Below, piece by piece: positions 9,570-28,190 of a stretch of 64,000 nt of DNA. Numbering within the stretch: the first letter of the stretch is position 1; each line of letters opens with the position of its first letter. The notes under the pieces are model-generated. The model searched no databases and was not told the DNA's origin. It saw only the letters and a program-made list of their open reading frames with translations. Source of the stretch: a virus; IMG/VR virus record IMGVR_UViG_3300022225_001767. One strand, given 5' to 3'. A program made the position numbers and the translations under genes.

Positions 9570-9680
9570 ATTAACGTTACTGAGGCGGTAACTCCCGCCT
9601 CGCAATCAGAAAAAGGGCAAGTGTCAGTCTTTTTTACACTTGCCCATCAACTCCCCCATTGAGTGTAAAGCTCAATCATT

Positions 9681-10814
9681 CTACCTTGATACTTTAGGTG
9701 ACTCAGGCTTATCAGGCTCTGGCTCACGGCCCAACAAATTATCAATCGTTCTAGCATCCGTCTGGATCAAGTTACTAGCACTTGCACGAAACGTAGGGTC
9801 AGCTTTGATGATTTTACTGGCGTTCTCTTCACTCGGTGACACTACACCCACCAGCGATCCATCGCCGCGTATTACCGCCATACCCTCTACCCATTCATGA
9901 CCCGTTTGCACTGCAACATCAAACTTTAACCCCACACTTTCGTTTGCAGGGACAGTAGGCAGTCTAGAAAGCGGGCTAGGGATGGTTGCATCTCGCGATA
10001 TAGCAGAGAGAATTGAATTTTGCATCGCATCCGCAACCGTTTTCATTTGCATCATATCAGATAGAGAATCAAGTTGACTGTTAGAACGCATCACTGTTGC
10101 GGCTTCATCTATCGTGCTATGCTGAAGCGGAGTGATTGCAGGGAACAATGAAGCTAAGCGCCGGTGGTTCGGATTGGCTTCGATACGCTCTTTCATGAAC
10201 GGCCAAATTTCATCCATATTATCACTGGTTATGCCGTGTTCTTGTCGGGTTTGCTCGGCCATTGCTCGAAACACTACCGCTGGAACAGATTCCGTGTTCA
10301 AGTCTTGCTGAAGCAATTCATTAAATGGTTTTGAACGATGTGCCATAACAATCATGTCTTCAAGATAGGATGCAACCGCTGTCGCCTCTCTACCGCTTTC
10401 AAACTTCATAGAAGGCATATTTCCGCTCAGCATACTTGGGCCTGCTACTTCATAGTGTGTATAGCGATAGTTTTCCGGCTTGCGCCAGTCAGGATTTAAG
10501 TTTTTAAAGTTAATGGATATATCACCGCTAACGCCCTCTAATGCTACCGTCTTTTCTGTCGAAGGGTGTGCGGGGTCGATAGTTTTTAGCGCCGCATTGA
10601 CCTTGGCCGCCAGGCTTTTTCTTACATCTGGCACATGCAGCTGTGTGTCGTTTTCGTGGACAAACGCCTCTACAGGCAGCTCAAGGACACCCGGTACAAT
10701 ACGGTAATCCCCCTCACTTTCTAATACACGTAGAGGCAGCTTGGCATTAAATGTTTCATTGTTGTGGCTTATCGTTACATCTAGATCTCTGTTCGGCGAG
10801 AGTGGCATAGTCAT
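9681..10814 (-). CDS. Hypothetical protein with basic C-terminal tail (SPKVSR)
   Basis: 377 aa, AAGGA SD. Confidence 0.75.
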   Translation of the reverse strand: MTMPLSPNRDLDVTISHNNETFNAKLPLRVLESEGDYRIVPGVLELPVEAFVHENDTQLHVPDVRKSLAAKVNAALKTIDPAHPSTEKTVALEGVSGDISINFKNLNPDWRKPENYRYTHYEVAGPSMLSGNMPSMKFESGREATAVASYLEDMIVMAHRSKPFNELLQQDLNTESVPAVVFRAMAEQTRQEHGITSDNMDEIWPFMKERIEANPNHRRLASLFPAITPLQHSTIDEAATVMRSNSQLDSLSDMMQMKTVADAMQNSILSAISRDATIPSPLSRLPTVPANESVGLKFDVAVQTGHEWVEGMAVIRGDGSLVGVVSPSEENASKIIKADPTFRASASNLIQTDARTIDNLLGREPEPDKPESPKVSR

Positions 10815-10949
10815 ATCCTTTATGCATTGCGTTATACCATTGATAGTATCACATTAGAAATAATTATCGTGCCATTTAAACATCAGCTTAAAGCAAGCAA
10901 AAAACCACCCTCTTAACCATGCTTATTTTCAACAGTAAGCATGTAACGC

Positions 10950-10994
10950 TTGACATATCACCGGGTTGTTGAGATAATGACCATGTCAACACAC
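10950..10994 (+). promoter_or_regulatory. Repeated promoter + GTCAACACA leader
   Basis: TTGACA 10950, TGAGATAAT, GTCAAC 10985. Confidence 0.85.
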
Positions 10995-11006
10995 AGGAGA
11001 TAAACC

Positions 11007-11501
11007 ATGCGAAACCTTATTCAAAAAACCTCAGCACTACTTGTTGCCGCAGTTAGCGTAGTCACACTTAGCGGTTGTGAGTCAACACCTAAGAACGACA
11101 ATGTGCGCGTGTTTTATACAGATGCCACGATTATCTCATTAGAGACAGCCACTCGTTGCAGCGGAAACGGGAATAGCAATGGCCCGTCACTTTTGGCTAT
11201 TATCGGTGGCGCAGCGCTGGGTGCTCACTTTGGCGGCAGCGACAGGGCAAAAGCGGGATTTGCGCTTCTTGGTGGTGCAGCAGGTGGGGCTATCTCTTCA
11301 GGTGCAAGCTCACGTGAACCTTATGGTCGCCAGCGCTGCAATGACAACTTTTATATAGCCAAGGTCAGCTTTATCGATCCTCTTACTATGCGCAAAGAAA
11401 TTTCAACGGTCAAACTGTCCAGTCGACCTTATTCAAAGCATTTGGAAAATGTAAAGATTGTTGCACCCAAGCTACCATTGAGCAACACACCAGTAAGGTA
11501 A
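11007..11501 (+). CDS. Lipoprotein with glycine-zipper 2TM motif
   Basis: Lipobox LSGC; IIGGAALGAHFGG…LLGGAAGG. Confidence 0.75.
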   Translation: MRNLIQKTSALLVAAVSVVTLSGCESTPKNDNVRVFYTDATIISLETATRCSGNGNSNGPSLLAIIGGAALGAHFGGSDRAKAGFALLGGAAGGAISSGASSREPYGRQRCNDNFYIAKVSFIDPLTMRKEISTVKLSSRPYSKHLENVKIVAPKLPLSNTPVR

Positions 11502-11612
11502 CATCAATCAGGCAATCTCATAGGCATACACAGTATGCCTTATCTTTTTTAAGGCTATGCGCGAGACTTTGTTCGAAAAAACGCTTGCCGTGGCATTGGG
11601 TTACACCTTAAA

Positions 11613-12113
11613 GTGAAAGACTTCTTACAGCTATATTCGCCTGATGAGCATCGCAATGTGTTTGACAAGCGCGTTTTTTTGTTGACATTTCATCTCATTG
11701 CTGAGATAATGAAATCTGTCAACACAACAAGAGTAAGCGTTATGCCAACAAGAGAAAAAGCACTTCTGTCTGTTCAAGCCACTCACCCTATCCATAGCGA
11801 TATCACGCATGTTGATATTGTGGTTGATTATTTCGAGGGACAGTACCGCATGGTGCTTCAACCTAAAAACAAGCGAGATGGTTTAGATAGCACTATTATC
11901 GTTGTTGGGAAAAACAGCGTTGGTACAAAAATCGTGCTTCGCCGAGTTTCTCGTTATTCATCAAAAACGCTTGAGAACATCTACCCTTCTGCATCTAACT
12001 GGCACACAATCTATGATGCTGTTTTTGCGCAAGGTTTCATTCTTGACGATGAGGCCAAAGAGGCACTGCAATGTGAGGTTGAATTGGCGGAAGAAGCGCG
12101 CTCTCAGCTGTAG
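11613..12113 (+). CDS. Hypothetical protein
   Basis: 166 aa ORF. Confidence 0.65.
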   Translation: MKDFLQLYSPDEHRNVFDKRVFLLTFHLIAEIMKSVNTTRVSVMPTREKALLSVQATHPIHSDITHVDIVVDYFEGQYRMVLQPKNKRDGLDSTIIVVGKNSVGTKIVLRRVSRYSSKTLENIYPSASNWHTIYDAVFAQGFILDDEAKEALQCEVELAEEARSQL

Positions 12114-12147
12114 CGCGCCATCACCTCACACAGCAATTACAAAATCA

Positions 12148-12192
12148 TTGACAACGCCCACAGCGCATGAGATGATATCACCGTCAACACAA
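12148..12192 (+). promoter_or_regulatory. Repeated promoter + GTCAACACAA leader
   Basis: TTGACA 12148, TGAGATGAT, GTCAAC 12183. Confidence 0.85.
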
Positions 12193-12206
12193 AAGCGAAC
12201 TTTAAT

Positions 12207-12617
12207 ATGAATTCTCAATTTAACAATGCGTACCAGTTACTGTCGGACGAAGATAACAATGCGCAATTAATCATTACGCCCAGCGCGCAATTCACGAAAG
12301 AGACGTCGCTCATGCTCGTGCCTGAGACTACATCTTCATCGTTGCTGGTTGTGGACTTAAGCATGAAGGAAAATATCGACCTTTCCTCTTTTGTTCAAAG
12401 TGCCTCGGTTGCCAATTCAGCGTGTGACGTTGCCCCGTTAGTGCTTAAAGACAACCCTGATGCGACATTAACATTTTCGCTTGAAAGTGACTGTGATCCA
12501 TATCGCTTGTTTATTGTGGCTGATTTTGAAAACAGTGTCGATGGCAGTAAAAACTTTCGCATAACGCTGCCATTGTCGACCACAGCCGACGCTCTTTTGA
12601 ATGCGTTAAACCATTAA
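12207..12617 (+). CDS. Hypothetical protein
   Basis: 136 aa, follows the repeat promoter. Confidence 0.75.
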   Translation: MNSQFNNAYQLLSDEDNNAQLIITPSAQFTKETSLMLVPETTSSSLLVVDLSMKENIDLSSFVQSASVANSACDVAPLVLKDNPDATLTFSLESDCDPYRLFIVADFENSVDGSKNFRITLPLSTTADALLNALNH

Positions 12618-12637
12618 TTATTTAGAGGGGAAGCATC

Positions 12638-12961
12638 ATGAATTACGACAATGCGGGGGCACGTGTCGCATCAACATCAAAGTGGGAGTGCCGCTTTGAT
12701 CATGCGACACTTTCTGCGCTTAAGGCGGAAAGTGAGACGGTTCGCAAGATGAACAATGGCGTAGCGAGGCGAGAACGCCTTCTTGCGCTGCTTAAGCGCG
12801 GATTCAGAGTCTGCCTCGATTTTTCTCATGGTGGCTCTTGGAGCAGCAAAGATAAAGACGTGAAGTATTTACTTAAAAAGAACAAAGTGATGCTTCACAA
12901 ACAGTATGAGCACTCAGCTGTTACCGAACATAAAAGTCACAATTACTTAGGCATTGTTTAA
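12638..12961 (+). CDS. Hypothetical protein
   Basis: 107 aa, GAGGGG SD. Confidence 0.7.
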   Translation: MNYDNAGARVASTSKWECRFDHATLSALKAESETVRKMNNGVARRERLLALLKRGFRVCLDFSHGGSWSSKDKDVKYLLKKNKVMLHKQYEHSAVTEHKSHNYLGIV

Positions 12962-12985
12962 CTGTCACAACAAAGAGAATGCAAA

Positions 12986-13816
12986 ATGACACGACATACC
13001 GTCACCATAACTAACCCTGAACGCACGTTTATTGTTGCGGATATCCATGGCCAAGACGCCTTACTCGAAAAGGCGTTAGGTGAGGTTGGTTTTTCAGCGG
13101 CGAATGGCGATGTGCTTTATGGTTTAGGCGATCTGATTGACAGGGGTCCTCAAAACACTGATGTGCTGTATCGATTTACACAACCTGGTTACCATACGAC
13201 CCTTGGCAACCATGAAGCCATCTTTCTAGCGTTGTTGGACAACTTGTCACCTGAGGATGCCATTGACATCGCAACGTTTCTTCATGAAGGCGGCATGGCG
13301 CTTATTATTGAATTTGTAAATGATGAAAAGACAAGGGTGAGGTATCGCTCGCATCTACCTGAAGCGTTGCAGGCCAATATGCTTATGGTGAGCTGGCTGT
13401 ATAACGGCGGAGCATGGTTCTTTGTCGATGCCAATCGTCGACCTGCTATACAATGGGAGGCGATTGAATACGCCAAACAGATCGACTTTCATCAAGCCAT
13501 TGAACTCGATACTCCACTGGGCAAGTTGGGGCTTGTTCATGCAGCGGTCCCTGATGGCGATTGGTCAGGTACAGACAGACTTGCTGTGGATGTTGACGCC
13601 TACCATCTCTGGGACAAGCATGCTGCCAAACTTGCGTTTGACGACACGTCGCCTGCCCCAACCTATGTTGCCAATATAGACAGGGTGGTGGTAGGTCATT
13701 GCATCACACCAACACATCGTCCCTTGTTAAGCGGGAACACTGTGTATATGGACACTGGAGCCGCAAAAGGCTTATCTCCTAGGGTTATGTCTGTCTCTGA
13801 TATTTTTTCACTTTAG
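12986..13816 (+). CDS. PPP-family metallophosphoesterase (PphA / lambda NinI-like Ser/Thr phosphatase)
   Basis: DIHG, GDLIDRG, GNHE, VHA, GH, DTGA motifs. Confidence 0.9.
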   Translation: MTRHTVTITNPERTFIVADIHGQDALLEKALGEVGFSAANGDVLYGLGDLIDRGPQNTDVLYRFTQPGYHTTLGNHEAIFLALLDNLSPEDAIDIATFLHEGGMALIIEFVNDEKTRVRYRSHLPEALQANMLMVSWLYNGGAWFFVDANRRPAIQWEAIEYAKQIDFHQAIELDTPLGKLGLVHAAVPDGDWSGTDRLAVDVDAYHLWDKHAAKLAFDDTSPAPTYVANIDRVVVGHCITPTHRPLLSGNTVYMDTGAAKGLSPRVMSVSDIFSL

Positions 13817-13841
13817 TGTTGTATCTTGACTAAGGCTGTTG

Positions 13842-14570
13842 CTATCGCTTACGACGCGACAGCAACAGCATACCAAACCCGAATCCACCCAGCATACCAA
13901 CAGGCACATCGCTAACGCTTTGTTGTAAATAACCAAAAGTGTTTAGCGCCTGGCGTGACTCTTCGTTATCCTCCAGGGAAAATGTCATCGACGGCAACGC
14001 AACGCCTGTGCTATTGCCTGTACCGTCCAACCTGTCATTGTGAATAACAACCCTGAAGTCACGCGCGAGCTCCGGCACTTTTACATCATTGACTTCGCGA
14101 TACCCCCATGAGCTCAAATCGTAATAGCCTAACTGTGTAATAGCGCCGGCTTGCGCTCCAGCCTCATTAAAAAACGTCACATACATACGCGAACGATCAC
14201 GGTCATTATACGATGAGTTAATATACATACCCATATCCATAGTAACCAATCCAGTATCAACAAGATCTATGTTTATGCCTCTGGCCTGGAGGTTACCAAA
14301 TTGCTCCATATAAGCATTGGCCGTACTTCCGCCCCACGCTGCGTAAAACTGTCCATCGTATCCATCTATCTCCCCGGTCCTATCCGGGAAGCGAAATTCC
14401 CCTGCAAAAATATCCCACTCTTCGCGCGCCCCAGTGCGGGCGTCAGCACCATTCACAGGTTGGAATGTGCTGTTCGCTATTAGATTTTCAGTAGTAACAA
14501 TGTTCGCGAAAGCTGAACTCGATAATAAGCACCCCGCAACGACGCCCAACCATTTCATAAAATCCCTCAT
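13842..14570 (-). CDS. Exported protein with PEP-CTERM-like tail
   Basis: Signal peptide; VSDVPVG + TM + SRRKR; related to the 28238 gene. Confidence 0.8.
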   Translation of the reverse strand: MRDFMKWLGVVAGCLLSSSAFANIVTTENLIANSTFQPVNGADARTGAREEWDIFAGEFRFPDRTGEIDGYDGQFYAAWGGSTANAYMEQFGNLQARGINIDLVDTGLVTMDMGMYINSSYNDRDRSRMYVTFFNEAGAQAGAITQLGYYDLSSWGYREVNDVKVPELARDFRVVIHNDRLDGTGNSTGVALPSMTFSLEDNEESRQALNTFGYLQQSVSDVPVGMLGGFGFGMLLLSRRKR

Positions 14571-14635
14571 TCATATTCTTTTCATTAAAATGACTATAAA
14601 GCAAACCCTGTTCCTCTTTTGCTGGATGCCCCATG

Positions 14636-14681
14636 TTGACAACGTTCTCACATAGTGAGATACTGGTCTTCGTCAACACAA
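14636..14681 (+). promoter_or_regulatory. Repeated promoter + GTCAACACAA leader
   Basis: TTGACA 14636, TGAGATACT, GTCAAC 14672. Confidence 0.85.
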
Positions 14682-14698
14682 TTACAGGAAACAACACC

Positions 14699-15322
14699 AT
14701 GAACACAACAACGATTTTAACACCGCGTGCGTCGCGTGATGACATTATTGCACGCGTGCGAGATGAACAATGTGTCTACAGCAATGTAATGACAAGTGAA
14801 GCGCTTAATGTAATGGCGCTATGCTTATTGTATCGTATGCTATATGAAACTCATCCGAATAAAAATGACGTCACAGCGGATGCGTTAGGTGACTGGGCAG
14901 AAGAGCACACGCTCTTAAACAATATTTGCGATAAAGCTGAAGCGCTACTGGATATTGACACTTCGGGAATGGAAGGCGAACCAGACGACATTGCACGGTT
15001 CACGCACGCCACTGATATCGAACGAGTGGAGATCATACTGTCCATGCTTGCCACTCCCCTGTATGCGCTTTTACCTGAACTCAACACGATGCCGGTTTAT
15101 CTTATCTTGGACAATGGTGGCTCGCTTGACGCATGGGGTAACGCGCTGGCACAAGGCGAGTCGGAGGATTCCCCTATCCTTGTGTTTGGGGACAGCCTGT
15201 CGGCAGCGTCGCTTCATGATGAGCTACTTGCCACAATGATGACCTCTGGTGCTCTTTCTTCAGCGACGCCGTCGCAAGAGGAGAGCTCAATCGCTTTTCT
15301 TTCTCTTATCAAAAAAAGATGA
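14699..15322 (+). CDS. Acidic hypothetical protein
   Basis: ATG 14699 after AGGA SD. Confidence 0.75.
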   Translation: MNTTTILTPRASRDDIIARVRDEQCVYSNVMTSEALNVMALCLLYRMLYETHPNKNDVTADALGDWAEEHTLLNNICDKAEALLDIDTSGMEGEPDDIARFTHATDIERVEIILSMLATPLYALLPELNTMPVYLILDNGGSLDAWGNALAQGESEDSPILVFGDSLSAASLHDELLATMMTSGALSSATPSQEESSIAFLSLIKKR

Positions 15323-15918
15323 GGCATTACATGCATAACATAGAAGAACGATTACTTTCCGGCATTGGAGGCAACCCTTTTTCGCGCGCACCATTAGAAG
15401 AAATCACCTTTTCTCCCCGTCGCTTCGCAAGTCAATTTCTTGCTATGAATGTCGATGCTGAGGCGCACTTCGAGGAGCATGGCGACCTGAGGTCCGCACT
15501 GCAACTAATGACACCTGGTTTTCAGCGTGATGCTGACAAGTGGTCCAGAGAAAAGCAGGTTAAATTCATAGAAAATTCACTATCCGGTTTTCGGTCGACA
15601 CTGCAAATCTTTGGGCTTGCCAGTGACACTACTTACAGCAACAGCATACCGCTTCACAGCAAAGTGCTTGATGGGTTGCAGCGATCAACAGCATGGGTAG
15701 ACTTTACTGAAAATAAATTTACGGTATTTAATGGATTGAGTTTCGATGACATTAAGAGCTTGTCATTGCTTAACCATGTGCGCTGTCACCTTCAGTGCTT
15801 CGTTTTCGAGACCGAGCGTGAAGCCTGCACCTATTATATCGATATCAATCGCGGTTTCACTCACTCAGAAGCGGATATTGTTCGAGCTGAGAAGTATATG
15901 GAAAATTTACCAAAATGA
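15319..15918 (+). CDS. DUF262 (ParB/Srx-like, GmrSD N-terminal-type) domain protein
   Basis: PGFQRD…W…Q…FIEN…G and VLDGLQRSTA signature. Confidence 0.75.
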   Translation: MRHYMHNIEERLLSGIGGNPFSRAPLEEITFSPRRFASQFLAMNVDAEAHFEEHGDLRSALQLMTPGFQRDADKWSREKQVKFIENSLSGFRSTLQIFGLASDTTYSNSIPLHSKVLDGLQRSTAWVDFTENKFTVFNGLSFDDIKSLSLLNHVRCHLQCFVFETEREACTYYIDINRGFTHSEADIVRAEKYMENLPK

Positions 15919-15920
15919 TC

Positions 15921-15946
15921 AAAAAGGAGGCTAGCCTCCTTTTTTT
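15921..15946. terminator. Bidirectional intrinsic terminator
   Basis: AAAAAGGAGG-CTAG-CCTCCTTTTTT between convergent genes. Confidence 0.8.
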
Positions 15947-16292
15947 ACGCCCTAGCCAAAGCATGTACACCGTAACCGTATTTTTTCTTTATAGGCGCGT
16001 TTAGCGCGCGCTGTAATTTATTCCAAGCGTCCTTGATCTCACGCTTACTCTTCTTCGGCGCTTTAACAGACACCATTTTACCATCATGAAGACAGGCATC
16101 TTCTGTTATTGGCAGTCCAACAAAATAATGGTACCTCATCTTACTGTCCATATCACACAGCACAACCAGGCCTTTTTCCCTACAGTCCTCAATGATGTCA
16201 TCTACCAAACCAGCTTCTACAGCATCTTTCTTGGTTCTAAATATCGCACGGTAACCTTGCATAACGGTAACGTATAACATTATCATCTCCAA
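15945..16292 (-). CDS. Hypothetical protein
   Basis: 115 aa ORF ending at the terminator. Confidence 0.65.
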   Translation of the reverse strand: MEMIMLYVTVMQGYRAIFRTKKDAVEAGLVDDIIEDCREKGLVVLCDMDSKMRYHYFVGLPITEDACLHDGKMVSVKAPKKSKREIKDAWNKLQRALNAPIKKKYGYGVHALARA

Positions 16293-16332
16293 TAAACAGA
16301 TAGCTCATGGATAATATCACTGACGCGGAAAA

Positions 16333-17052
16333 CTATGGTTTTTTTCTTGATCTAAACAGCGCACACCCTGTTATTATCGCCACGGCACTTAAGGGAAATG
16401 TGCCTGTTATGCCTACATCGTTAACGGTTGATGTTCTTGTTGAACTTAAGGTATACCCACCTTCAGAAACCAAAAAGACTGCGCTGTGATCCTGACTGTT
16501 GAAGTAACCTGAACGATTGTAATCTGACATTTTCATCCTGAAGCTATCTCCAAACAACTCTATAGAGGTTCTCCCTGAGGCGTTTTCATCAGGGTGAGTG
16601 CTTGGCAGGTGGTATCCTGACACATACATTGAACTGCTTGAACTTCTTGTTTCTCCCAACAGTAACTTTGCTCGTTCATAGTTCTCATGGTGTTTAGGGT
16701 CATTGTGTCGATTTAGGGAGAGCGAGTCTGTCGCGCCTGGGGAGGGCAAATGTGACACATAATCATAATTTGTGACAGCCATCATAAAGTGATACACTTC
16801 TTCAGCTGTTGGTATCCGAAACCCCTCAAACCGCCCAGACTCAATCATATCACCATGCAAGCGTGCTCCCTCAACACTTGACATCGACATGCGATGCGTT
16901 TCAGTTAAATCTAGCCACTCTAATCCGGTGTCCTCATGGAGTGTGATTTTTTTATCACCTTCCACTTTCCAATCGCCCTCAACCAATCCCGCTTGAGCGC
17001 CAAAAGACATTGCTGCAAAAACAATGCTTGAGATTATTGTACGTCGTTTCAT
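16333..17052 (-). CDS. Exported protein with PEP-CTERM-like tail
   Basis: Signal peptide; TLHEDTGLEWLDLTET; VNDVG + TM + RSRKKP. Confidence 0.8.
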   Translation of the reverse strand: MKRRTIISSIVFAAMSFGAQAGLVEGDWKVEGDKKITLHEDTGLEWLDLTETHRMSMSSVEGARLHGDMIESGRFEGFRIPTAEEVYHFMMAVTNYDYVSHLPSPGATDSLSLNRHNDPKHHENYERAKLLLGETRSSSSSMYVSGYHLPSTHPDENASGRTSIELFGDSFRMKMSDYNRSGYFNSQDHSAVFLVSEGGYTLSSTRTSTVNDVGITGTFPLSAVAIITGCALFRSRKKP

Positions 17053-17118
17053 ATCAATCCCTTATTACGAATAAAATGAAAAAGAAAGCAAGTATTACGC
17101 CCATATCAACCTTAAATC

Positions 17119-17164
17119 TTGCGAATCATTGTGAATAATGAGATAATTTACAGGTCAACACAAC
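17119..17164 (+). promoter_or_regulatory. Repeated promoter + GTCAACACAAC leader
   Basis: TTGCGA 17119, TGAGATAAT, GTCAAC 17154. Confidence 0.8.
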
Positions 17165-17177
17165 ACGGAAACGAAAC

Positions 17178-17534
17178 ATGCTATATTTGAACGATTCGGC
17201 AGGAAACTCAATTGCTATACCTTCTCTGAAGGAGGTCACGCATCTTCTACGAAGAAATCTATGGGTAAAAAGACAATACCCGATATTGCGTGCTTACCTG
17301 GCTGGCAGCACCTCCAGAGGGGAAGCTCGTCCTGACAGCGATCTGGATATCCTTTTAGTGATAAATCCGGTAAAAGGCAAGCGGTCAATTAGCGTGTCAG
17401 AGCATTATCATGCAAGATTTACCGCTGACCACCAAAAGCCTCACTTTGAAGGAAGGCAGGTGGACTTTCAGTTTTATTACCCTGATGAAGAGTCACGCAT
17501 TTTAAAAATGAACAACCCTATTTTGTTGGCCTGA
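17178..17534 (+). CDS. Minimal nucleotidyltransferase (Pol-beta superfamily, MNT-like)
   Basis: YLAGSTSRGEARPDSDLDILL and third acidic residue in VDF. Confidence 0.85.
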   Translation: MLYLNDSAGNSIAIPSLKEVTHLLRRNLWVKRQYPILRAYLAGSTSRGEARPDSDLDILLVINPVKGKRSISVSEHYHARFTADHQKPHFEGRQVDFQFYYPDEESRILKMNNPILLA

Positions 17535-17548
17535 ATTCCGCGTCACAC

Positions 17549-17592
17549 TTGACTACAAACACAGCTTTTGAGATAATAGTTTTGTCAACACA
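17549..17592 (+). promoter_or_regulatory. Repeated promoter + GTCAACACA leader
   Basis: TTGACT 17549, TGAGATAAT, GTCAAC 17584. Confidence 0.85.
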
Positions 17593-17606
17593 GTACGGAG
17601 AATATC

Positions 17607-17999
17607 ATGTCTACAACCTATACCTCACCTCGCTTAGCGGTTTTAATTGCAGGTTTTATCATTGGTGCAAATGCGGCTGCGCTTAATTTAGCCAAAGTGG
17701 AGTCTGTTGCTGAGGCGTCCACTGCATACGTAACACCAACAGAGCGCATTACACTTGGATTTAACGCACTATCTGCGATACGAAACAAAGCGGCCGACCT
17801 CCCACGGGACACGGCGCTTTACACACACTTCGATGAGAATGAGATTATTACTGTTGCCCATTATATTGGCGACTACAACATGCAGGTGAGAGAAACCTGT
17901 AATAACGATAAACTAATGCCGTTGTCATTGGACATGACAAACCAGCGCATTAGCATCGCTACGTCATCATTTATCAAAGCTTGTCGCGGCCATTTGTAG
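17607..17999 (+). CDS. Exported or membrane-anchored hypothetical protein
   Basis: N-terminal hydrophobic segment, GGAG SD. Confidence 0.7.
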   Translation: MSTTYTSPRLAVLIAGFIIGANAAALNLAKVESVAEASTAYVTPTERITLGFNALSAIRNKAADLPRDTALYTHFDENEIITVAHYIGDYNMQVRETCNNDKLMPLSLDMTNQRISIATSSFIKACRGHL

Positions 18000-18037
18000 T
18001 CGCGCAAAAAAAAAGATCGAAAAAAATAGAAAAAGTG

Positions 18038-18072
18038 TTGACAGGATCTAAATGTTGTGAGAGGATACACAT
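18038..18072 (+). promoter_or_regulatory. Promoter of the candidate sRNA
   Basis: A-tract UP element, TTGACA 18038, 17-bp spacer ending TGA, GAGGAT; the +1 region reads GTCGAA rather than GTCAAC. Confidence 0.6.
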
Positions 18073-18329
18073 GTCGAAAGGGAGAACACAGGTTCAAACC
18101 TGACGACAATGCTAACAACGCCTTGAGATTACTCGGCCTGTTAGCCGCGGGGGCACTAAGAACGTCAACACTTAATGCCTATATAACCGCCCAGTTTATT
18201 TGCCTGGCACCTGTTGTGTTGACGCCCTCTTGGTGCTAGGCCCCCCTTCGCTGCACGCTCTGTTGTGTTGACGCCTTCTCAGCGTGCAGCCCCTAAACAA
18301 AAAAAAGCGCCTTTGTGGCGCTTTTTTTG
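18073..18329 (+). ncRNA. Candidate trans-acting sRNA, antisense to the GUCAACACAACAG mRNA leaders
   Basis: No credible ORF. Hairpins 18203-18240 and 18250-18290 each present (C)TGTTGTGTTGACGCC in the loop; own promoter and terminator. Confidence 0.7.
18299..18329. terminator. Bidirectional intrinsic terminator
   Basis: AAAAAAAGCGCC-TTTGT-GGCGCTTTTTTT. Confidence 0.85.
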
Positions 18330-18343
18330 TATCTGTAGATAGC

Positions 18344-19021
18344 TCAAACCCTTGCTGTTCTTCGACGCAGCATTAGTCCAATTGTCATCAGGCCAAAGCC
18401 TCCAAGCAAAGGTGCTGACACTTGGTTAATCGGCGCCTGAGGATTTTGAATGTTTAATGATGGGTCATTGATGGAGCTTAATGTAACGCCGCCATCGGAC
18501 ACCAACAACACGCCCATGTACTGGTTTGTATAATCAGTTGTGTCGTCACCATACCCGTACCAATACGACGTCTGTCCCGATGCGCGCGACACACCAAAAA
18601 AACCAAGCTGCCCGTTCTCTTTGTACCCCAGTCCATAAGACCGGATTGTCGGCGAAGGGGTCACTTCACCCATGTTCGAAACCCAATCCTGCGCTTGCTG
18701 TGTGTAAAGCGAATAATTTCGACGGGTCCCCTGAGGATTGTTCAGCATAGAACTGCCTGCAAAATTCGCCTCCCATAATGTTACTATTTCCTCTGACGTA
18801 GGAATACGCCACCCCTCAAGACTTCCACCAGGAGCCAGCTCAGCCTGAACATCATCGACACTTTGCCCTAATGTGTTTGTCACCTTAAGCCACTCAATGC
18901 CGGTTTCTTCATGCAGCGTTGCCAACCCATCACCTGACACTTTCCAATCAGTATCAATAAATCCTGCTTGGCTGGCACAGGATAATACGGTAAACACTGC
19001 GCCCACTAACCACTTTCTCAT
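18344..19021 (-). CDS. Exported protein with PEP-CTERM-like tail
   Basis: Signal peptide; QVSAP + TM + RRRTARV; paralogue of 6158. Confidence 0.8.
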   Translation of the reverse strand: MRKWLVGAVFTVLSCASQAGFIDTDWKVSGDGLATLHEETGIEWLKVTNTLGQSVDDVQAELAPGGSLEGWRIPTSEEIVTLWEANFAGSSMLNNPQGTRRNYSLYTQQAQDWVSNMGEVTPSPTIRSYGLGYKENGQLGFFGVSRASGQTSYWYGYGDDTTDYTNQYMGVLLVSDGGVTLSSINDPSLNIQNPQAPINQVSAPLLGGFGLMTIGLMLRRRTARV

Positions 19022-19112
19022 ATTCTCATTCCTTTTTTCGGCATACCTAAGCCACTTTCCTTAAATAAAGCAAAACTTATTCCATTATTTAAATCAAAAT
19101 TTCAAAAAGCCA

Positions 19113-19158
19113 TTGACAAAGCACACAGCCTCAGGCATGATGTTACCTGTCAACACAA
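19113..19158 (+). promoter_or_regulatory. Repeated promoter + GTCAACACAA leader
   Basis: TTGACA 19113, CATGAT, GTCAAC 19149. Confidence 0.8.
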
Positions 19159-19170
19159 ACGGAGAAACAC

Positions 19171-20016
19171 ATGCACCTCAGTACAATAACCCGCGTTCAA
19201 CGCGTTACCCCATTACGTAAACCAGGCCGCCTTCAGGTTATGAGCACTCTGTCTGATGATCCTCTTGGCCGCACAGGCTCAATGGTCACCGCTATCGCCT
19301 TCGAACCAAGCACACAGCGCGTCCAAGGCTTAAATGGGTGGGTATATCACATTGCAGATGGCGCCGCCGACAAAGATAGCCTCCAAGCATTATCAACGCT
19401 TAAAGACACCATCATTGATGACAATATTCCGGCGTGGTGGAAAGAAGGACGTCCCGTTTATCCTACGCGTGGTGAATTCAGAGAGTTCTCCGACAAGAGA
19501 GACTATGAAGTTTACTCTGTCCCTGCACCTAAAGATGACATTATACTGTCACCAATAAACCTTAGCTCTGAGCAGTTACCTAGCACCTTAACACTCGAAC
19601 AGTGGCTAATGAAATGCGTTGAGGACAATGACATTCTTCATGGCGACATGCACCTTGCCGCTAACCCTATCCCTGACGATAACAACAATATAAAGCTCTA
19701 TGCAAGCAAAGGTCTCGCCTTTCGTAAGGCTGAATGGCTATCCATGCACTCTCCCGTCCCTGGGCATTGCATTCGTTTATATATGAGTGACCAACAAACC
19801 ATCATGGCTTTTGGCCCCAAAACCTTCAAGAGCGCTATGGCAAAGCGGGCTTTAGCGCTGAAAGATTTTGACGTTAGTGCGCTTATTGATGCCATGCGTT
19901 CAGAGTCAAGTGTTGCGGTCGACTTTATCAAAACGGATGATGGCTATCATGCACACACCTTCTGGCGTTACGATGACATTGACGATGTTGTTTACGCCGA
20001 TGAGCTTAAGCTCTAA
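19171..20016 (+). CDS. Hypothetical protein
   Basis: 281 aa, GGAG SD. Confidence 0.8.
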   Translation: MHLSTITRVQRVTPLRKPGRLQVMSTLSDDPLGRTGSMVTAIAFEPSTQRVQGLNGWVYHIADGAADKDSLQALSTLKDTIIDDNIPAWWKEGRPVYPTRGEFREFSDKRDYEVYSVPAPKDDIILSPINLSSEQLPSTLTLEQWLMKCVEDNDILHGDMHLAANPIPDDNNNIKLYASKGLAFRKAEWLSMHSPVPGHCIRLYMSDQQTIMAFGPKTFKSAMAKRALALKDFDVSALIDAMRSESSVAVDFIKTDDGYHAHTFWRYDDIDDVVYADELKL

Positions 20017-20104
20017 CCTTGGCATGATGGAAGGCGAAAGCCTTCCACACCAAGAACACCTTTTCATCGTTGATTTAACTCACCAACCCTGTTAACATTA
20101 ACTC

Positions 20105-20293
20105 GTTCACAAAAGCGCTCGCTCCGAAATACGGGCAGCAGCAAGAATGGGTTTGCCCCCTTTGATCTCAACATGCTACAAGCATGACAGACAGCTAAAC
20201 ATCACATTTGCAATGTAACTTCATCAATAAGTCACTTGCTTTGATGTATTGAGATCCATCTTGTCAACAAGTGCAAATATTGAGGAAGTCAAA
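20105..20293 (+). ncRNA. Structured 5' leader A (pseudoknot-like family)
   Basis: Promoter TTGATT 20070 / TAACAT 20093. GATCTCAA 20164 pairs with TTGAGATC 20249, which lies in the loop of hairpin CACTTG 20233 / CAAGTG 20268. Confidence 0.55.
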
Positions 20294-20842
20294 ATGACCA
20301 AATTTAACCTTTCCACCCCCAACGGCCTGTCTGGTTTTCTAAAGAACCTTAAGCGTCAATTTACGCTGGCCAACATGGATATTCGCAAAACGAAAGACAG
20401 CAAGCTGCTTCATCGCGCAGCCGAAGCCATGGGGCTGGAGGACTGGCCCACATTGTCAGCGTCACTCACACCCCCTCTTAAGATCAATAACAGGACCGTA
20501 TCTGAGAGCAAACAGCGAGACGCAGAAGCGACACTAAAAGACTTACTTGAAAGTAACCAGCGTATCGAAAATGGTGAAGATGTTGATATCGACGACAGTA
20601 TATACGGCCGCTCAGTGTCTCGTATCGAGGTATTCTTCTCACTAGGCTCAGACAGGGATATTACGTTTACGGTTGCGGTTGGTGCTCGTGGTGAATTTGA
20701 TATAGAAAGTGCGAAAATTACCGTTCGCGGCTTTGATACCATTGGCATCGTTCAACCTGAAGGAGAAGCGCTCCTTTCGCTCTGTGATCTTTTTGAATCC
20801 AGAGTGGGATTTGAAGTCGATCGTTTTTTCTCAGGTAAGTAA
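20294..20842 (+). CDS. Protein with Glyoxalase_8-like N-terminal helical motif
   Basis: KDSKLLHRAAEAMGLEDWPTLSA; GAGG SD. Confidence 0.6.
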   Translation: MTKFNLSTPNGLSGFLKNLKRQFTLANMDIRKTKDSKLLHRAAEAMGLEDWPTLSASLTPPLKINNRTVSESKQRDAEATLKDLLESNQRIENGEDVDIDDSIYGRSVSRIEVFFSLGSDRDITFTVAVGARGEFDIESAKITVRGFDTIGIVQPEGEALLSLCDLFESRVGFEVDRFFSGK

Positions 20843-20852
20843 CGTGCTCATC

Positions 20853-20880
20853 AAAAAAGCCGCTTTTAAAGCGGCTTTTT
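20853..20880. terminator. Bidirectional intrinsic terminator
   Basis: AAAAAAGCCGC-TTTTAAA-GCGGCTTTTT. Confidence 0.8.
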
Positions 20881-20899
20881 ATTCTACATCAGGCTCAGA

Positions 20900-21157
20900 T
20901 TACTTCTTTATCGTTCCTCTTTTGCCTTTCTTTGTTGTTGTTGTTTCGTGTTCAGGCGGAGGAGGCGCAACATCGATAAGCATCGACTTATTCATCTGCG
21001 TTTCTGCTGAACCCATGTCAATAACGACTGGTGCGCCGTCATTCATAGCATCTGCGGCCAAATCGCCACCATTTACAGAGGTGGCGGCACTTGCTGCGGT
21101 TGAAGCAAAAGCGACGGCTGCAACCAAAAGAGTATTTTTAACTAAACGCGTTCGCAT
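20900..21157 (-). CDS. Small secreted protein with Pro/Lys-rich C-terminus
   Basis: Signal peptide ending ASA-A; AAGGA SD. Confidence 0.65.
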   Translation of the reverse strand: MRTRLVKNTLLVAAVAFASTAASAATSVNGGDLAADAMNDGAPVVIDMGSAETQMNKSMLIDVAPPPPEHETTTTKKGKRGTIKK

Positions 21158-21227
21158 GATAATATTTCCTTCTTTTTGGATTAAATATTTACAATAATAT
21201 AAAATGGACAGATGGAATTACGCCTTA

Positions 21228-21440
21228 CTACTTTTTAGACGCAGGTGGAAGTCGAGGTCCTTTGGGCTTTTTCTCTTGCTCTGTTAGTGGCGACGCCACG
21301 ATCAAGCTTAAACCAACCACGTCACGAGACACTCTACTTTCGTCACTAACAGCAACGCCTTTTTCTGACGCCGCACTGGCCGTCATACTCATCGTTAACG
21401 CTGAGGCTAAAAGCGAAACTTTTAGTACCGTTTTTCGCAT
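21228..21440 (-). CDS. Small secreted protein with Pro/Lys-rich C-terminus
   Basis: MRKTVLKVSLLASALTMSMTASA signal peptide; same layout as its neighbour. Confidence 0.65.
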   Translation of the reverse strand: MRKTVLKVSLLASALTMSMTASAASEKGVAVSDESRVSRDVVGLSLIVASPLTEQEKKPKGPRLPPASKK

Positions 21441-21712
21441 GTTCATCATCCTTTCTACTAATTGTATCAATGGGTTGAGATTTACTGCGCTCCTTAACAG
21501 GAGTAAATTTACAGTACGGAATATTTTTATCTAAGTCAACGTCTTATTTTGTGAAAATTTTAACGAATGCTCGCTAACCCCCGCCACCTAAGACTTCGCA
21601 TGGTCAAAAAAAACTAAACCAATGTCTAATGTACATTATTTGACCCACGACATATAATTGTGTATTCTCCTCCTATAGCGAGAAAACCCACCACTAATAA
21701 AAATGGAATATT

Positions 21713-22537
21713 ATGAAAAACACACTCTGTACGCTTATTTTAAGCTCGGTCGCGTTCGTATCATCAGTGAATGCAGAGCCGATCCTGGTACACGACTATC
21801 CTGAAGCAAAAAAGCTTTTTTATACGGAAACCAAGGTTGATCACTCTCTACCTAATGGTGGACAACGTGGGCATGATATTGCGGTTCGTACCGGAAATGG
21901 CAGTCACGGCGATTCATCCAATTTAAATTGGTTGAGCTACGATGGGAACCACAATCTTGATTGGTTCAAACATACGTTTGATTGGTCTATCACGCGTGAT
22001 GGAACTGACACCACTTATTCATTTGGTGGGACAACAGTGCAAACACAGTCTCTGGAAGGGGATTGGGACGCGCTTGGTATTTATTTTAACACCTCTGGCT
22101 GGTCAGGCTATTTCTTTGATAATGCCTACATCAACATGACGTTAGATACATGGAATGAAACGGCACTCATCGATCCTATCTCTTACAAGTCAAAACTTGG
22201 TAAGACAAAATTCATGGAGTTTACTGACAGCGATGAGCAGTGGATTGAGTCAGTTTCTGGTACCGCAACGTTTCACTGGAACGTCAAAGATTATTATTCA
22301 TATTACCATTGGAAAGAGAAATCTCCCAACGGCCGCCTTGCTATGTACTTCAAAGGCTATGACTACCTTGGCGCAGACTACACGTCGCCAGGCAACGACG
22401 CAGACATCCCCATTGACGAAACAGGCAACATCATTGAAAATCCAACGAATGTCGGCGCGCCTATGCTCGCCTCTGCGGGGCTGCTGATGCTGGGCGCTTC
22501 TTGGGTGAGACGACGAAAAAGTCTCATGCAAATGTAA
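21713..22537 (+). CDS. Exported protein with PEP-CTERM-like tail
   Basis: Signal peptide; TNVGAP + TM + RRRKS. Confidence 0.8.
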   Translation: MKNTLCTLILSSVAFVSSVNAEPILVHDYPEAKKLFYTETKVDHSLPNGGQRGHDIAVRTGNGSHGDSSNLNWLSYDGNHNLDWFKHTFDWSITRDGTDTTYSFGGTTVQTQSLEGDWDALGIYFNTSGWSGYFFDNAYINMTLDTWNETALIDPISYKSKLGKTKFMEFTDSDEQWIESVSGTATFHWNVKDYYSYYHWKEKSPNGRLAMYFKGYDYLGADYTSPGNDADIPIDETGNIIENPTNVGAPMLASAGLLMLGASWVRRRKSLMQM

Positions 22538-22543
22538 CCAGAC

Positions 22544-22570
22544 AAAAAACCACGCTTATGCGTGGTTTTT
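22544..22570. terminator. Bidirectional intrinsic terminator
   Basis: AAAAAACCACGC-TTAT-GCGTGGTTTTT. Confidence 0.8.
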
Positions 22571-22573
22571 GTT

Positions 22574-23293
22574 TTAGGCATTTACCATCCACTGCTTACG
22601 CACTTTTTTCCTTTTCCAAGTTCGTTCTAAGCACACGTACTTTTCATTAAACTCATTTGGCAACGCTGAAGCACCGCGCTTACCGCGAACGTTTGGCGCA
22701 TCAGGCTCCATCTTAAGGGCCTCAAGGCTCCGGCGCTCTGCCATTACCTTAGGGCGGCGATAACAGTACCCTGTTCTCACATAGCCAGGTTGATGCTTGA
22801 ACTTACTTAACCAACTGTTAAAACCAGACTCCCGTTCTCCAGGGAGCACGCCGCGATTATAAGGCGAACAATCGCTTTCCATCCATGCAGCCACTGACGT
22901 TAAGTGACCTCGCGGCCCCCATGGACGCGGCTTAGTAGGCTCAGGCAAGGGATCACCAAACTCAGTGGTTACCTTGGCGACTTCATAGAAGTCTTCGCGC
23001 GCATGAGGCACGAACTCCCTTGCTCTTAAACGAAAATAATACATCCTTTCAGACTCACCTTCTCGCGGCCTTAAAGGTGTCTCTCGCTTCCTAAGACGAT
23101 GCTTGCAATCGCTACCTATCGCCTGTTCGAGCGTTAAGTATCTTGCGTCACAGTGACGACACACATAGGCTTCTGAAGCGGTTGCTTTCCGTTTCACCGG
23201 GGAAGCAATGTATGCTGCCAAGTTTTCAAAAATGCGAACCCGTGTCGGCGTGCGCTCTATAATTTTAGGCTCATAAACAGGAACCTCGTACAT
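22574..23293 (-). CDS. Basic hypothetical protein
   Basis: 239 aa, AGGAG SD, CxxC and C-terminal RTWKRKKVRKQW. Confidence 0.75.
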   Translation of the reverse strand: MYEVPVYEPKIIERTPTRVRIFENLAAYIASPVKRKATASEAYVCRHCDARYLTLEQAIGSDCKHRLRKRETPLRPREGESERMYYFRLRAREFVPHAREDFYEVAKVTTEFGDPLPEPTKPRPWGPRGHLTSVAAWMESDCSPYNRGVLPGERESGFNSWLSKFKHQPGYVRTGYCYRRPKVMAERRSLEALKMEPDAPNVRGKRGASALPNEFNEKYVCLERTWKRKKVRKQWMVNA

Positions 23294-23425
23294 GATTTAT
23301 CTCCTAATGTAAAACTTCACATTCGGAATGTCATGCGTCCCTGTATGGCATGGTACTTAATCGGCATAATGCCTCCTTACTTAAACTTTAATTATTATAA
23401 CACCAATGTGTCAAAATACAATAAA

Positions 23426-23454
23426 TAAAAAGGGCAGATTATACTGCCCTTTTT
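23426..23454 (-). terminator. Intrinsic terminator downstream of the porin gene
   Basis: AAAAAGGGCAG-ATTATA-CTGCCCTTTTT. Confidence 0.75.
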
Positions 23455-23469
23455 GGTTCAACTGTAAAT

Positions 23470-24639
23470 CTAGAATACAAAATTAACCGCAACGCGCGCC
23501 AATGTGCCATCATTATCGTCTGACACATCATCATTGTATCGAGACACATCAGCCTTTAATGCCACACCGCTATCCAAATCATAGCGCAATGCCACAGATG
23601 TAATACTGTAATCTTCAACCTGAGAAGCCTGCGCACCTAATGCGACGCTTGTTAAGGTTGCAGCCACGCTGTCTGGTAGCCCTGAACCAGCGATATCATT
23701 GATAAGTGACGCGTTATTGATAGACAACTCAGACTCGAAGCGTTCATACGTAATAGACGGTGTCCACTTACCATAACGCGCACCGGCGGTGACATAGTAT
23801 GCCGTATCATCATTGCTAAAACTATCATCAATCATCACTTTAGTTAGCTCTGCGCCTACAAAATACTGATAGTTGTCCCACATCACGCTAGCGCCCAGGA
23901 ATTGACCTTCATCATCTTCCATTTCAAGCGAGTCCGATAGCGCGACTAAACCCAGCTCTCGCATAGTTGAGAAGCCACCTGCCAGCAAGGCCGCCTGCTC
24001 ATCACTTGAACCTGCAAGATCAAGGGTGGCATCTGTTCGCCCAACCACCCCACGGACGGTCAAGCTTTCATTACTCGCCTGCAATGATACTAACAGCGTG
24101 TTTTCTCCACGAAGGTCCGCACCAAAGGCGTCACCTTTAAATTGCCCTGCCGCCACATCAGTCAGGATATCCCAACCGCCCAGCATGTTGCTGTAGCTCA
24201 CTTTTACACCATCAAGGTTATTGAAAGGCACATTGTAGATTGCATTCGGTGCGGTTACCCAATGATAGGTATAACCCACATCCAGTGACGCCGAATAGGC
24301 AAATAAAGGAAGACGAGAGCGGCCCGCGGTTACGGTCCAGTTGTTGTTAACTTCGTAAGAGAGGTAAGCCCACTCAAACGCCACATCAAAGTCATCTTCA
24401 CCACGCGATAACACCTGGGCTGTTGCCGTTATCTTGTCTGATACGTCTGATGAAAATTGTAACGCAAACAAGCTGTCGTTTTGAAAATCGATATTGTCAT
24501 CAAAATTCAACACAACATCATCACTGCTGGCGATACCGCCAACAACGTTACCGAATCCATTGATCGTCACATCCGCCTGCGCACCCGCTGCGGCCAACAT
24601 AACACTCGCTGCTAACAATGATTTTTTCATGTTCTTCAT
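23470..24639 (-). CDS. Outer-membrane beta-barrel (porin)
   Basis: Signal peptide; INGFG, EWAYLSY, GRSRLP; terminal Phe (VNFVF). Confidence 0.8.
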   Translation of the reverse strand: MKNMKKSLLAASVMLAAAGAQADVTINGFGNVVGGIASSDDVVLNFDDNIDFQNDSLFALQFSSDVSDKITATAQVLSRGEDDFDVAFEWAYLSYEVNNNWTVTAGRSRLPLFAYSASLDVGYTYHWVTAPNAIYNVPFNNLDGVKVSYSNMLGGWDILTDVAAGQFKGDAFGADLRGENTLLVSLQASNESLTVRGVVGRTDATLDLAGSSDEQAALLAGGFSTMRELGLVALSDSLEMEDDEGQFLGASVMWDNYQYFVGAELTKVMIDDSFSNDDTAYYVTAGARYGKWTPSITYERFESELSINNASLINDIAGSGLPDSVAATLTSVALGAQASQVEDYSITSVALRYDLDSGVALKADVSRYNDDVSDDNDGTLARVAVNFVF

Positions 24640-24650
24640 TTTGCTGTCCC

Positions 24651-25064
24651 CTACTTGGTCAATACGACTTTAACATCACCCGTGACGCTTGATGCATCGA
24701 CGTAAGAGATGGCGTTTTTATTGTCTTTAACGAGATTGATGACGGCGGCGTCATCACTTACTTGTTTTGGCGCCGATCCTTTTCCGGTAAACACCTGTTT
24801 TGCCCAATAGCTGGCGACCTGTGAGCTGCTACGATTTAGCAACCCCGTATTAAAAGCATCCGTCGTCGTCGCTGTTTCTTGCGTGATAGGGAGCACCTCC
24901 TTACCATCGCTAAATTGGCCCGCCTTACCCAAGAACATACGCGCTACATCTTCAGCAGTAATTTCTGCTGTGTTTTCAGGGTGAACAATGACAGCCACTT
25001 CAGCAAATGCAGAGACGGCAACACTCGCACTAAGCGATAACGCTAATACTACTTTTTTAAGCAT
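24651..25064 (-). CDS. Small periplasmic binding-protein-like ('phosphate ABC transporter substrate-binding'-like) porin partner
   Basis: AEVAVIVHPEN…MFLGK…YWAKQVFTGKG…P…AISYVD. Confidence 0.8.
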   Translation of the reverse strand: MLKKVVLALSLSASVAVSAFAEVAVIVHPENTAEITAEDVARMFLGKAGQFSDGKEVLPITQETATTTDAFNTGLLNRSSSQVASYWAKQVFTGKGSAPKQVSDDAAVINLVKDNKNAISYVDASSVTGDVKVVLTK

Positions 25065-25257
25065 TATTATTCCTTCTTACAGGGTTGTGTTTGAAAATGA
25101 TTTTATATTGCGTTGACAGCAATGACATGAATTCTTTCATACTTTCAAGTAAATAACAACACTACTTTAAAATAAGGCAACAAATTAACTTACTCTCTTC
25201 ACCTGCACAACATTTTAAATAGCTTGCCTTTATCCCCTACTGTGGTATTATTTAATT

Positions 25258-25424
25258 ACTTCGAGTTGGCATAGCCGTAAAATCTTGAATGGGCACTCGG
25301 CCCGCCGCCTCACATTGGCAAAAGAGTACACAGCAACAGCACATAGTATAAACACAACATGCGTTGTCGTGGTGGTGAGTGAGGTAACCCGTAAAGTAAA
25401 AAGACAACGTTTTTGGAGTGTTAT
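25258..25424 (+). ncRNA. Structured 5' leader B (pseudoknot-like family)
   Basis: Promoter TTGCCT 25224 / TATTAT 25246. CCTCAC 25308 pairs with GTGAGG 25379, in the loop of CGTTGTC 25362 / GACAACG 25403. Confidence 0.55.
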
Positions 25425-25970
25425 ATGATGCATTGCCCACCTATTCTTGGCTTCCTTTCGGTGGCCCACTTTCGAGATGAAACAAAAAAGCTGTCAGAAC
25501 ATCTCAACATCCCCTTAAACAAACTGAGAAAGAAAATTGCCAATCGACACGGTTTCAAAGGCATTGAACCCTACGAGGCTCAACTTTCGCTTTTCGAAGC
25601 GCAGGATGTTGACGCCATACCGCCTTATCGTATTGGCGGAGGGAAAATTGTATACCTGATCTGCTATGAAACGCTAAGACACACATCATCAGGTTACGTA
25701 TGGAATGAGAACAAGAAAGGCATTATGGCCGAGTTAAGCTCCATGATGAACTTCAATCACAACAACGTACACCGTGATAACATTCAACTCCTCATCACTC
25801 GTGTCGAGGTGCCATGGGATATGGATCATGACGAGATTACAGACACGTTGTCTAATTTTGAGGAGCGCATTATGTTGGAGCATAAGGGATTTCGTTACCC
25901 GCTGACTCAGAAGGGGTTTAAAGACAGTGTCGCTGCTGTTAACGCGGACAATGATGATGAAATTGATTGA
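25425..25970 (+). CDS. Protein with Glyoxalase_8-like N-terminal helical motif
   Basis: PLNKLRKKIANRHGFKGIEPYEAQL; GGAG SD. Confidence 0.6.
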   Translation: MMHCPPILGFLSVAHFRDETKKLSEHLNIPLNKLRKKIANRHGFKGIEPYEAQLSLFEAQDVDAIPPYRIGGGKIVYLICYETLRHTSSGYVWNENKKGIMAELSSMMNFNHNNVHRDNIQLLITRVEVPWDMDHDEITDTLSNFEERIMLEHKGFRYPLTQKGFKDSVAAVNADNDDEID

Positions 25971-26012
25971 CAATACTCACAGTGTTTGTAATACTGTCCC
26001 TGTCAACACAAC
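25967..26012 (+). promoter_or_regulatory. Repeated promoter + GTCAACACAAC leader
   Basis: TTGACA 25967, TGTAATACT, GTCAAC 26002. Confidence 0.85.
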
Positions 26013-26028
26013 TCGGAGTAATATTACC

Positions 26029-26403: not shown

Positions 26404-26482
26404 AAGCTGTCCGTTCAACATCATTATCCTGAGGGCGTGACCCGCCCTCGCTATCAATTTTCCTCAACGGAAAGGACACCTA

Positions 26483-28180: not shown

Positions 28181-28190
28181 ATCAACAGGC

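Follow-up and report, generated by a model that had tools for sequence, protein, structure and literature searches.

Here we describe a candidate antisense RNA, two of whose hairpin loops carry the complement of a tag that stands at the predicted 5' end of dozens of mRNAs encoded on the same mobile element. The tag, GTCAACACA, precedes about 35 genes in the window, by which we mean the whole 64,000-nt stretch that was analysed (IMG/VR record IMGVR_UViG_3300022225_001767), and because its complement recurs in two loops of one RNA, that RNA probably helps to silence the gene block. The evidence supports a predicted RNA that would act in trans through loops matching a standardised 5' tag, and we consider it likely that it represses an establishment-type regulon by antisense pairing in trans, in a manner like that of IS10 RNA-OUT and GcvB. 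An earlier interpretation made from the letters alone (the sequence-only reading) had proposed a structured RNA with loops matched to the 5' tag, a proposal now backed by covariation with a paralogue and by matched tag/anti-tag pairs in two elements.

The DNA of the element is common in marine metagenomes, on contigs of up to 486 kb. Its SSB and about a dozen more proteins are closest to those of Alteromonas mediterranea pAMCP48-600/pAMCP49-600, which have been described as conjugative chromids (PMC5217437). From these likenesses we infer that the element is a widespread marine Alteromonas-type megaplasmid related to pAMCP48-600.

Tagged promoters and the candidate RNA

The leader GTCAACACAAC, allowing at most one mismatch, has 35 matches in the window where 1.9 are expected, and 35 promoter-leader units on the + strand align as TTGACA-N17-GATACT-like-N6-GTCAACACA. 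Across these units positions +1 to +9 of the tag carry 1.8-2.0 bits, above the -35 and -10 boxes themselves. In 33 of the 34 measurable units the distance from the -35 box to the first base of the tag is 35-36 nt, so that the G of the tag coincides with the expected start site; the tag lies 21-31 nt (median 23) before the AUG. Positions +1 to +12 are predicted to be unpaired by 80% on average. The tagged genes are mostly small orphans, among which ssb and a nucleotidyltransferase gene can be recognised. The unit at 34688 has a full promoter and tag with no adjoining RBS or ORF; transcription from it could yield an extended leader or a decoy RNA that codes for nothing.

Table 1. Features of the window and of related elements.
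Feature	Position	Strand	Basis or remark
Predicted RNA promoter	18038..18066	+	sequence; geometry as in the 35 leader promoters
Candidate non-coding antisense RNA	18073-18329, ~257 nt	+	predicted fold, promoter, terminator
Two 5' hairpins	18073-18107, 18111-18145	+	predicted fold
Hairpin S, sense tag copy CGUCAAC in loop 18161-18170	18152-18179	+	predicted fold
Hairpin 1, anti-tag 18211-18226	18203-18240 (arms 18203-18211 / 18232-18240)	+	fold, complementarity
Hairpin 2, anti-tag 18260-18275	18250-18290 (arms 18250-18259 / 18281-18290)	+	fold, paralogue comparison
Bidirectional intrinsic terminator, common to RNA and convergent gene	18299-18329	.	sequence, fold
Upstream neighbour, 130-aa orphan protein, tagged at 17584	17607-17999	+	ORF and tag
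Convergent neighbour, 225-aa secreted-type protein	18344-19021	-	signal peptide, C-terminal membrane segment, basic tail
About 35 units of sigma-70-type promoter, GTCAACACA(AC) leader and RBS	dispersed, 3758..63323	+	alignment
Tagged units, first part	3758, 4625, 5307, 8272, 10985, 11718, 12183, 14672, 17154, 17584, 19149, 26002	+	
Tagged units, second part	26900, 30219, 32673, 33121, 33854, 34419, 34688, 35830, 38769, 42430, 43453, 45216 (ssb)	+	
Tagged units, third part	48150, 49462, 51936, 54481, 55742, 56901, 58926, 60368, 60660, 60978, 61884, 63311	+	
Paralogous anti-tag RNA	L230:15512-15700, ~14 kb past window end		order: sense-loop hairpin, hairpin 1, hairpin 2, terminator
pAMCP48-600 candidate anti-tag RNA	NZ_CP018025.1 243028-242915	-	complement in loop of long hairpin
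G004 candidate anti-tag RNA, ~105 nt	47520-47414	-	z -6.9; between GOLLD and a tRNA

The sequence-only reading placed the TTGACA at 18038, both hairpins and the terminator correctly by sequence. The fold that it called for bears out a structured unit (z -6.66, with none of 200 shuffles equally stable) whose pairing with the leaders spans 9-14 nt. Against Rfam covariance models, those of GcvB, C4, RNA-OUT, CsrB and 6S included, the unit matched no family at or above the gathering threshold, and there were no matches in the window; the best sub-threshold match, to sraL (25.5 of 39 bits), is driven mainly by the terminator. The differences among relatives within the terminator are confined to its loop and the length of the A-tract, and its U tail is compatible with Hfq dependence without being diagnostic of it.

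The predicted promoter comprises a -35 box (TTGACA, 18038-18043), a 17-nt spacer and a TG-extended -10 box (GAGGAT, 18061-18066) with an A-tract upstream, and is identical from -35 to +1 across five relatives. The claim that the RNA has a promoter of its own holds for the TTGACA and the A-tract, but the match is only moderate and lies below the threshold of a consensus promoter scanner, which misses it because the -10 box GAGGAT is weak. At +1 this promoter reads GTCGAA in place of the tag, a substitution that had been pointed out before. By prediction, and with this moderate promoter match, the unit is a stand-alone non-coding one of the trans-encoded sRNA type. It had been described as free of ORFs; a 60-codon GTG ORF (18057-18239) does overlap it, but is frameshifted in relatives, and we reject a coding role. 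The -35 regions at 18035-18043 (the RNA promoter) and 33813-33823 (the 33854 promoter) read as the reversed tag GTGTTGAC.

Hairpins 1 and 2 were said to display the same loop sequence, and the 16-mer CTGTTGTGTTGACGCC is indeed found exactly twice in the window, at 18211-18226 and 18260-18275, with no third copy on either strand and 8e-5 copies expected. Hairpin 1 holds a UUGA mini-loop of YUNR type, and mini-loops of the form GUG-UUGA-C(G/A)C are shared by hairpins 1 and 2, the G004 RNA and hairpin 2 of the paralogue. That both loops are on display is true of hairpin 2, whose anti-tag is mostly unpaired in the structure ensemble, but not of hairpin 1 in the full-length molecule. There the minimum-energy fold (-101.2 kcal/mol) lacks hairpin 1, whose loop pairs with the internal sense copy (18163-18171); imposing hairpin 1 on the fold gives -97.5 kcal/mol, a cost of 3.7 kcal/mol. 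Deleting the 5' part of the RNA restores hairpin 1 in the predicted fold, and the sense copy, folded alone, occupies the loop of the small hairpin S. In these models hairpin S is able to pair with the loop of hairpin 1 or to hide it. By our own reading, the variants of relatives at 18078 and 18137 fit the stems of the 5' hairpins.

The core of the unit (18150-18290) is invariant in five relatives (L098-L102), while neighbouring genes differ by 1.5-15%. Its convergent neighbour is a secreted-type protein and not an RNA-guided nuclease. Four minus-strand genes (6158-6868, 16333-17052, 18344-19021 and 13842-14570) encode such proteins, which have a signal peptide and whose C-terminal membrane segment and basic tail recall a PEP-CTERM-type sorting signal; the products of the first three are untagged paralogues that are also expanded in pAMCP48. 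In the relative L099 an IS607-type element with tnpB (L099:11129-12923) has taken the place of part of the 225-aa gene and of a 281-aa gene beside the RNA.

These surroundings bear on the idea that the RNA pairs with the tag by way of a dedicated protein, an RNA-guided repressor or nuclease whose target would be either the nascent transcript or positions +1 to +12 of the non-template DNA strand, and which would so control transcription or decay rather than occlude the ribosome. We regard this as unlikely. In the window element the tag has a fixed place at the predicted +1, its short duplexes are conserved (2 bits) far beyond typical sRNA targets and pAMCP48 encodes a type IV CRISPR-Cas system (PMC5217437), all of which such a protein would accommodate. 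However, neither side of the RNA has a Cas-, TnpB- or Argonaute-like gene: its neighbours are the 130-aa orphan and the secreted protein rather than the partners of a TldR-type repressor or a CRISPR mini-array, although an effector gene might lie at a distance. The IS607-type insertion in L099 truncated the convergent gene and left the RNA intact. Moreover, constant loops between variable stems are the reverse of a CRISPR array, and the aligned window promoters have no fixed motif upstream of the tag.

Pairing with the leaders and a proposed mechanism

Hairpin 1 pairs contiguously over 14 nt, into the AGG of the Shine-Dalgarno sequence, at 48150, 54481, 60368, 60660, 60978 and 63311, exactly the six sites for which perfect pairing had been claimed. 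The 9-12 nt claimed for all other sites is found at most of them, the duplex ending short of the Shine-Dalgarno, but not at 45216 and 61884, where the leaders diverge within the first five bases. Predicted pairing energies are -21.0 kcal/mol for tagged genes (weakest -15.5) against -9.1 kcal/mol for untagged ones (strongest -13.6), a separation that arises partly by construction. The RNA would thus offer an exposed, conserved seed to the translation-initiation regions of unlinked mRNAs, the hairpin-1 loop being conditionally masked.

Translational repression through direct RNA pairing is the probable mode of action. According to this model, a tagged mRNA offers UCAA at its free 5' end, on which the UUGA loop would nucleate, and the duplex would then zip over 9-14 bp toward the Shine-Dalgarno. 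It would cover an ACA-type translation enhancer within the 30S footprint and so block translation, and pairing would probably speed up mRNA decay as well. For hairpin 1, the internal sense loop may act as a delay or a buffer.

The same pairing might instead stabilise or activate its targets, a 5'-end duplex keeping 5'-end-dependent decay away from tagged mRNAs without obstructing the Shine-Dalgarno. Contiguous pairing does stop at +9 to +12, upstream of the Shine-Dalgarno, at most sites, as such protection would have it; yet the paired stretch is 9-23 nt upstream of the AUG, inside the footprint of initiation, and takes in ACA motifs of the kind that repress GcvB targets when masked (PMC3879156). 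Hairpin 1 and the G004 RNA reach into the Shine-Dalgarno, and the leaders are already unstructured, which leaves an activator nothing to open. Protection appears distinctly improbable on these grounds, and by analogy with known antisense RNAs we favour repression over stabilisation.

By analogy with Reg576, the tagged genes may be establishment genes that undergo a zygotic-type burst of expression on transfer and then fall silent as the anti-tag RNA accumulates; the support for such transient expression is the tagged ssb and a tagged DNA methyltransferase gene in pAMCP48. A protein repressor bound to a promoter palindrome may well join the shut-off. The spacer palindrome C[TA]CA-N4-7-TG[AT]G is present in 15 of the 35 window promoters (a raw count without a chance control), a CTCAC-N5-GTGAG-like palindrome lies at about -26 to -13 of each tag (for example 42430 and 11718), and the promoter of the RNA itself retains the right half alone of the latter. 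These palindromes suggest a separate protein-repressor layer acting at putative operators, of which the sequence-only reading said nothing.

A paralogue and matched pairs in other elements

The sequence-only reading had envisaged a single master sRNA, a view overturned by a second predicted RNA with two anti-tag loops on the same element (L230:15512-15700). The best reading of the sequences is that the window RNA belongs to a small family of anti-tag RNAs on this element. As in the window, CGUCAAC occupies a hairpin loop upstream of hairpin 1, and the outer stem of hairpin 1 is preserved. In hairpin 2 the 21-nt loop is identical, while six of the nine stem pairs are changed on both sides and none is broken. 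Covariation of the stems and of the loop/leader pairs had been proposed as a check, and both are seen: over both stems 15 of 15 pairs are kept, seven of them changed on both sides (a comparison of two paralogue types in four rows, with the structure derived from these same sequences), and in other elements tag and anti-tag change jointly. The paralogue, which has no obvious promoter of its own, lies directly 3' of an ORF and is possibly 3' UTR-derived.

A second system is found in pAMCP48-600 (NZ_CP018025.1), where the window-type tag is absent and 24 promoters, mostly at 81-166 kb, have their own tag, TTCACACACA. A single intergenic 13-nt complement of TTCACACACA lies at 242979 on the minus strand (0.013 expected), with CTG...GCC flanks like those of the window RNA, in a candidate RNA with a modest fold (z -2.3) and without a clear terminator. 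Predicted loop-leader pairing for the window element and pAMCP48-600 is -20.5/-19.6 kcal/mol with their own partners against -12.2/-11.1 kcal/mol across the two plasmids. In most of the pAMCP48 promoters an AATCA-N3-TGATT palindrome, likely a repressor operator, lies over the -10 box. The notion that this tag is anchored to the RBS and not to the promoter was dropped, the spreads being similar (sd 2.5 vs 2.7 nt). Since pAMCP48-600 is carried by a cultured strain, the system is open to direct testing in Alteromonas mediterranea CP48. The plasmid pAMEC615-200 has no repeated leader.

The third system, located by its leader pattern, is in a 129-kb provirus (G004, IMGVR_UViG_2920292642_000002) with about 26 promoters bearing GTCAAC(G/A)CAAC, 22 of them clustered with leaders at 69-83 kb. 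Its candidate RNA has one 15-nt antisense copy, which covers the Shine-Dalgarno and places a U opposite the leader variants G (n=21) and A (n=5), so that both variants would be tolerated by base pairing. A bias toward G-U wobbles among tag variants was also considered and dropped, being confounded with transition bias and not evident. The provirus also encodes a permuted tmRNA of alphaproteobacterial type.

Tag and anti-tag sequences change together across the three elements. A covariance model of the window RNA matches that RNA and its paralogue alone and leaves the pAMCP48 and G004 RNAs undetected; the layout is therefore common to the three, with ancestry unproven. Comparison of the unit with phages and plasmids by blastn gave chance matches or none, a search for the two-loop pattern in viral, genome and metagenome contigs gave nothing or unrelated repeats, and SSB-led viral loci have no tagged promoters.

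These comparisons weigh against the view that the tag is a DNA site (an operator, an inverted-repeat arm or an ssDNA-promoter hairpin) for which the copies at 18.2 kb serve as decoy or looping sites with no RNA-RNA pairing. In the window promoters TTGAC at -35 and GTCAA at +1 do form an inverted repeat, six of the 35 promoters fold as ssDNA with z < -2, and protein-repressed establishment regulons such as Reg576 are known (PMC6294495). Yet the mean ssDNA z is just about -0.9, which does not match Frpo/ssi ssDNA promoters, and the pAMCP48 tag has no such repeat and sits at 34-44 nt from its -35 box. An invariant loop within compensated stems is predicted for a functional RNA loop and is not predicted for a DNA site, decoys included. 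The antisense orientation within a promoter-terminator unit in three elements and the U opposite G or A in G004 would be left unexplained, and other palindromes already resemble operators. We consider a DNA site very improbable.

Several unrelated phages (L143, L179, L183, L187, L202 and others) have one to three TTGAC..GTCAACACAAC promoter-leaders, in most cases a single copy and no regulon, and their recurrence in unrelated phages suggests a solution that mobile elements have reached repeatedly. Such single leaders would also be expected if the tag were a translation-enhancing leader spread by promoter duplication and the RNA did another job, as a protein sponge or a 6S-like RNA-polymerase decoy, and ACA motifs do enhance translation by themselves (PMC3879156). 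This alternative is scarcely credible, as a CsrB-type sponge would show the leader sequence whereas the RNA shows its complement, and the anti-tag follows the tag sequence in three elements. Silencing by pairing with the tag remains the reading that we prefer, and its extension to a general RNA address system of large plasmids and phages, in which early or establishment genes are tagged, anti-tag RNAs with changeable seeds silence the class after entry and tag variants insulate regulons, falls just short of probable in our estimation. If that is so, the tag flags orphan genes of the early class and yields a list for anti-defence and host-takeover screening, and matched tag/anti-tag pairs could become orthogonal multi-gene switches.

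Relation to known systems

Repression by base pairing is well known, but a standard tag borne by dozens of genes and answered by anti-tag RNAs that the element itself encodes is an apparently undescribed combination: we found no account of the layout or its motifs in a literature whose coverage was thin for subscription journals. The closest geometry, a loop on a free 5' tail, is that of IS10, in which the loop of RNA-OUT attacks the unstructured 5' tail of RNA-IN and blocks its RBS (PMC4737173). RNA-OUT, however, is encoded in cis and matches its single target in full (PMC4737173), whereas the window RNA is encoded elsewhere, pairs over 9-14 nt and would reach dozens of targets that share a standard tag. 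With targets up to 45 kb away and pairing of at most 14 nt, it does not belong with the cis-encoded antisense RNAs (RNA-OUT, CopA, Sok).

As a multi-target trans RNA directed at A/C-rich enhancer elements just upstream of the Shine-Dalgarno, it resembles GcvB, which silences ACA enhancer motifs in that position (PMC3879156). GcvB differs in being chromosomal and Hfq-dependent and in using imperfect, variably placed sites in amino-acid genes, whereas here the tag is near-invariant, at +1 and on the same mobile element as the RNA, which has no GcvB Rfam match. The R1 seed of GcvB is likewise G/U-rich. The c4 RNA targets one antirepressor operon through two different segments, whereas here both loops are identical, the regulon is dispersed and there is no Rfam C4 match. 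The likeness to c4 of phages P1/P7 lies in a trans RNA of a mobile element with loop-displayed complements near the RBS (PMC12197685); the two segments, co-located operon and tRNA-like fold of c4/CI RNAs are not found. Nor is the RNA a sponge of the CsrB/RsmZ kind, whose loops repeat the motif of the target leaders (GGA); the loops here show the leaders in reverse complement.

Establishment genes are known to be timed after horizontal transfer by ssDNA promoters and by protein repressors. CUP/ArdK of IncN plasmids is one protein-repressed establishment regulon. Another, Reg576 of p576, is alike in its repeated promoters before small plasmid genes, which are derepressed after transfer until the repressor accumulates (PMC6294495). 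In both the repressor is a DNA-binding protein, whereas here an RNA layer is proposed atop probable operators, and the window element has about ten times more promoters. If the model is correct, a tag-directed RNA repressor would be a third timing route alongside these two, apparently in both megaplasmids and phages.
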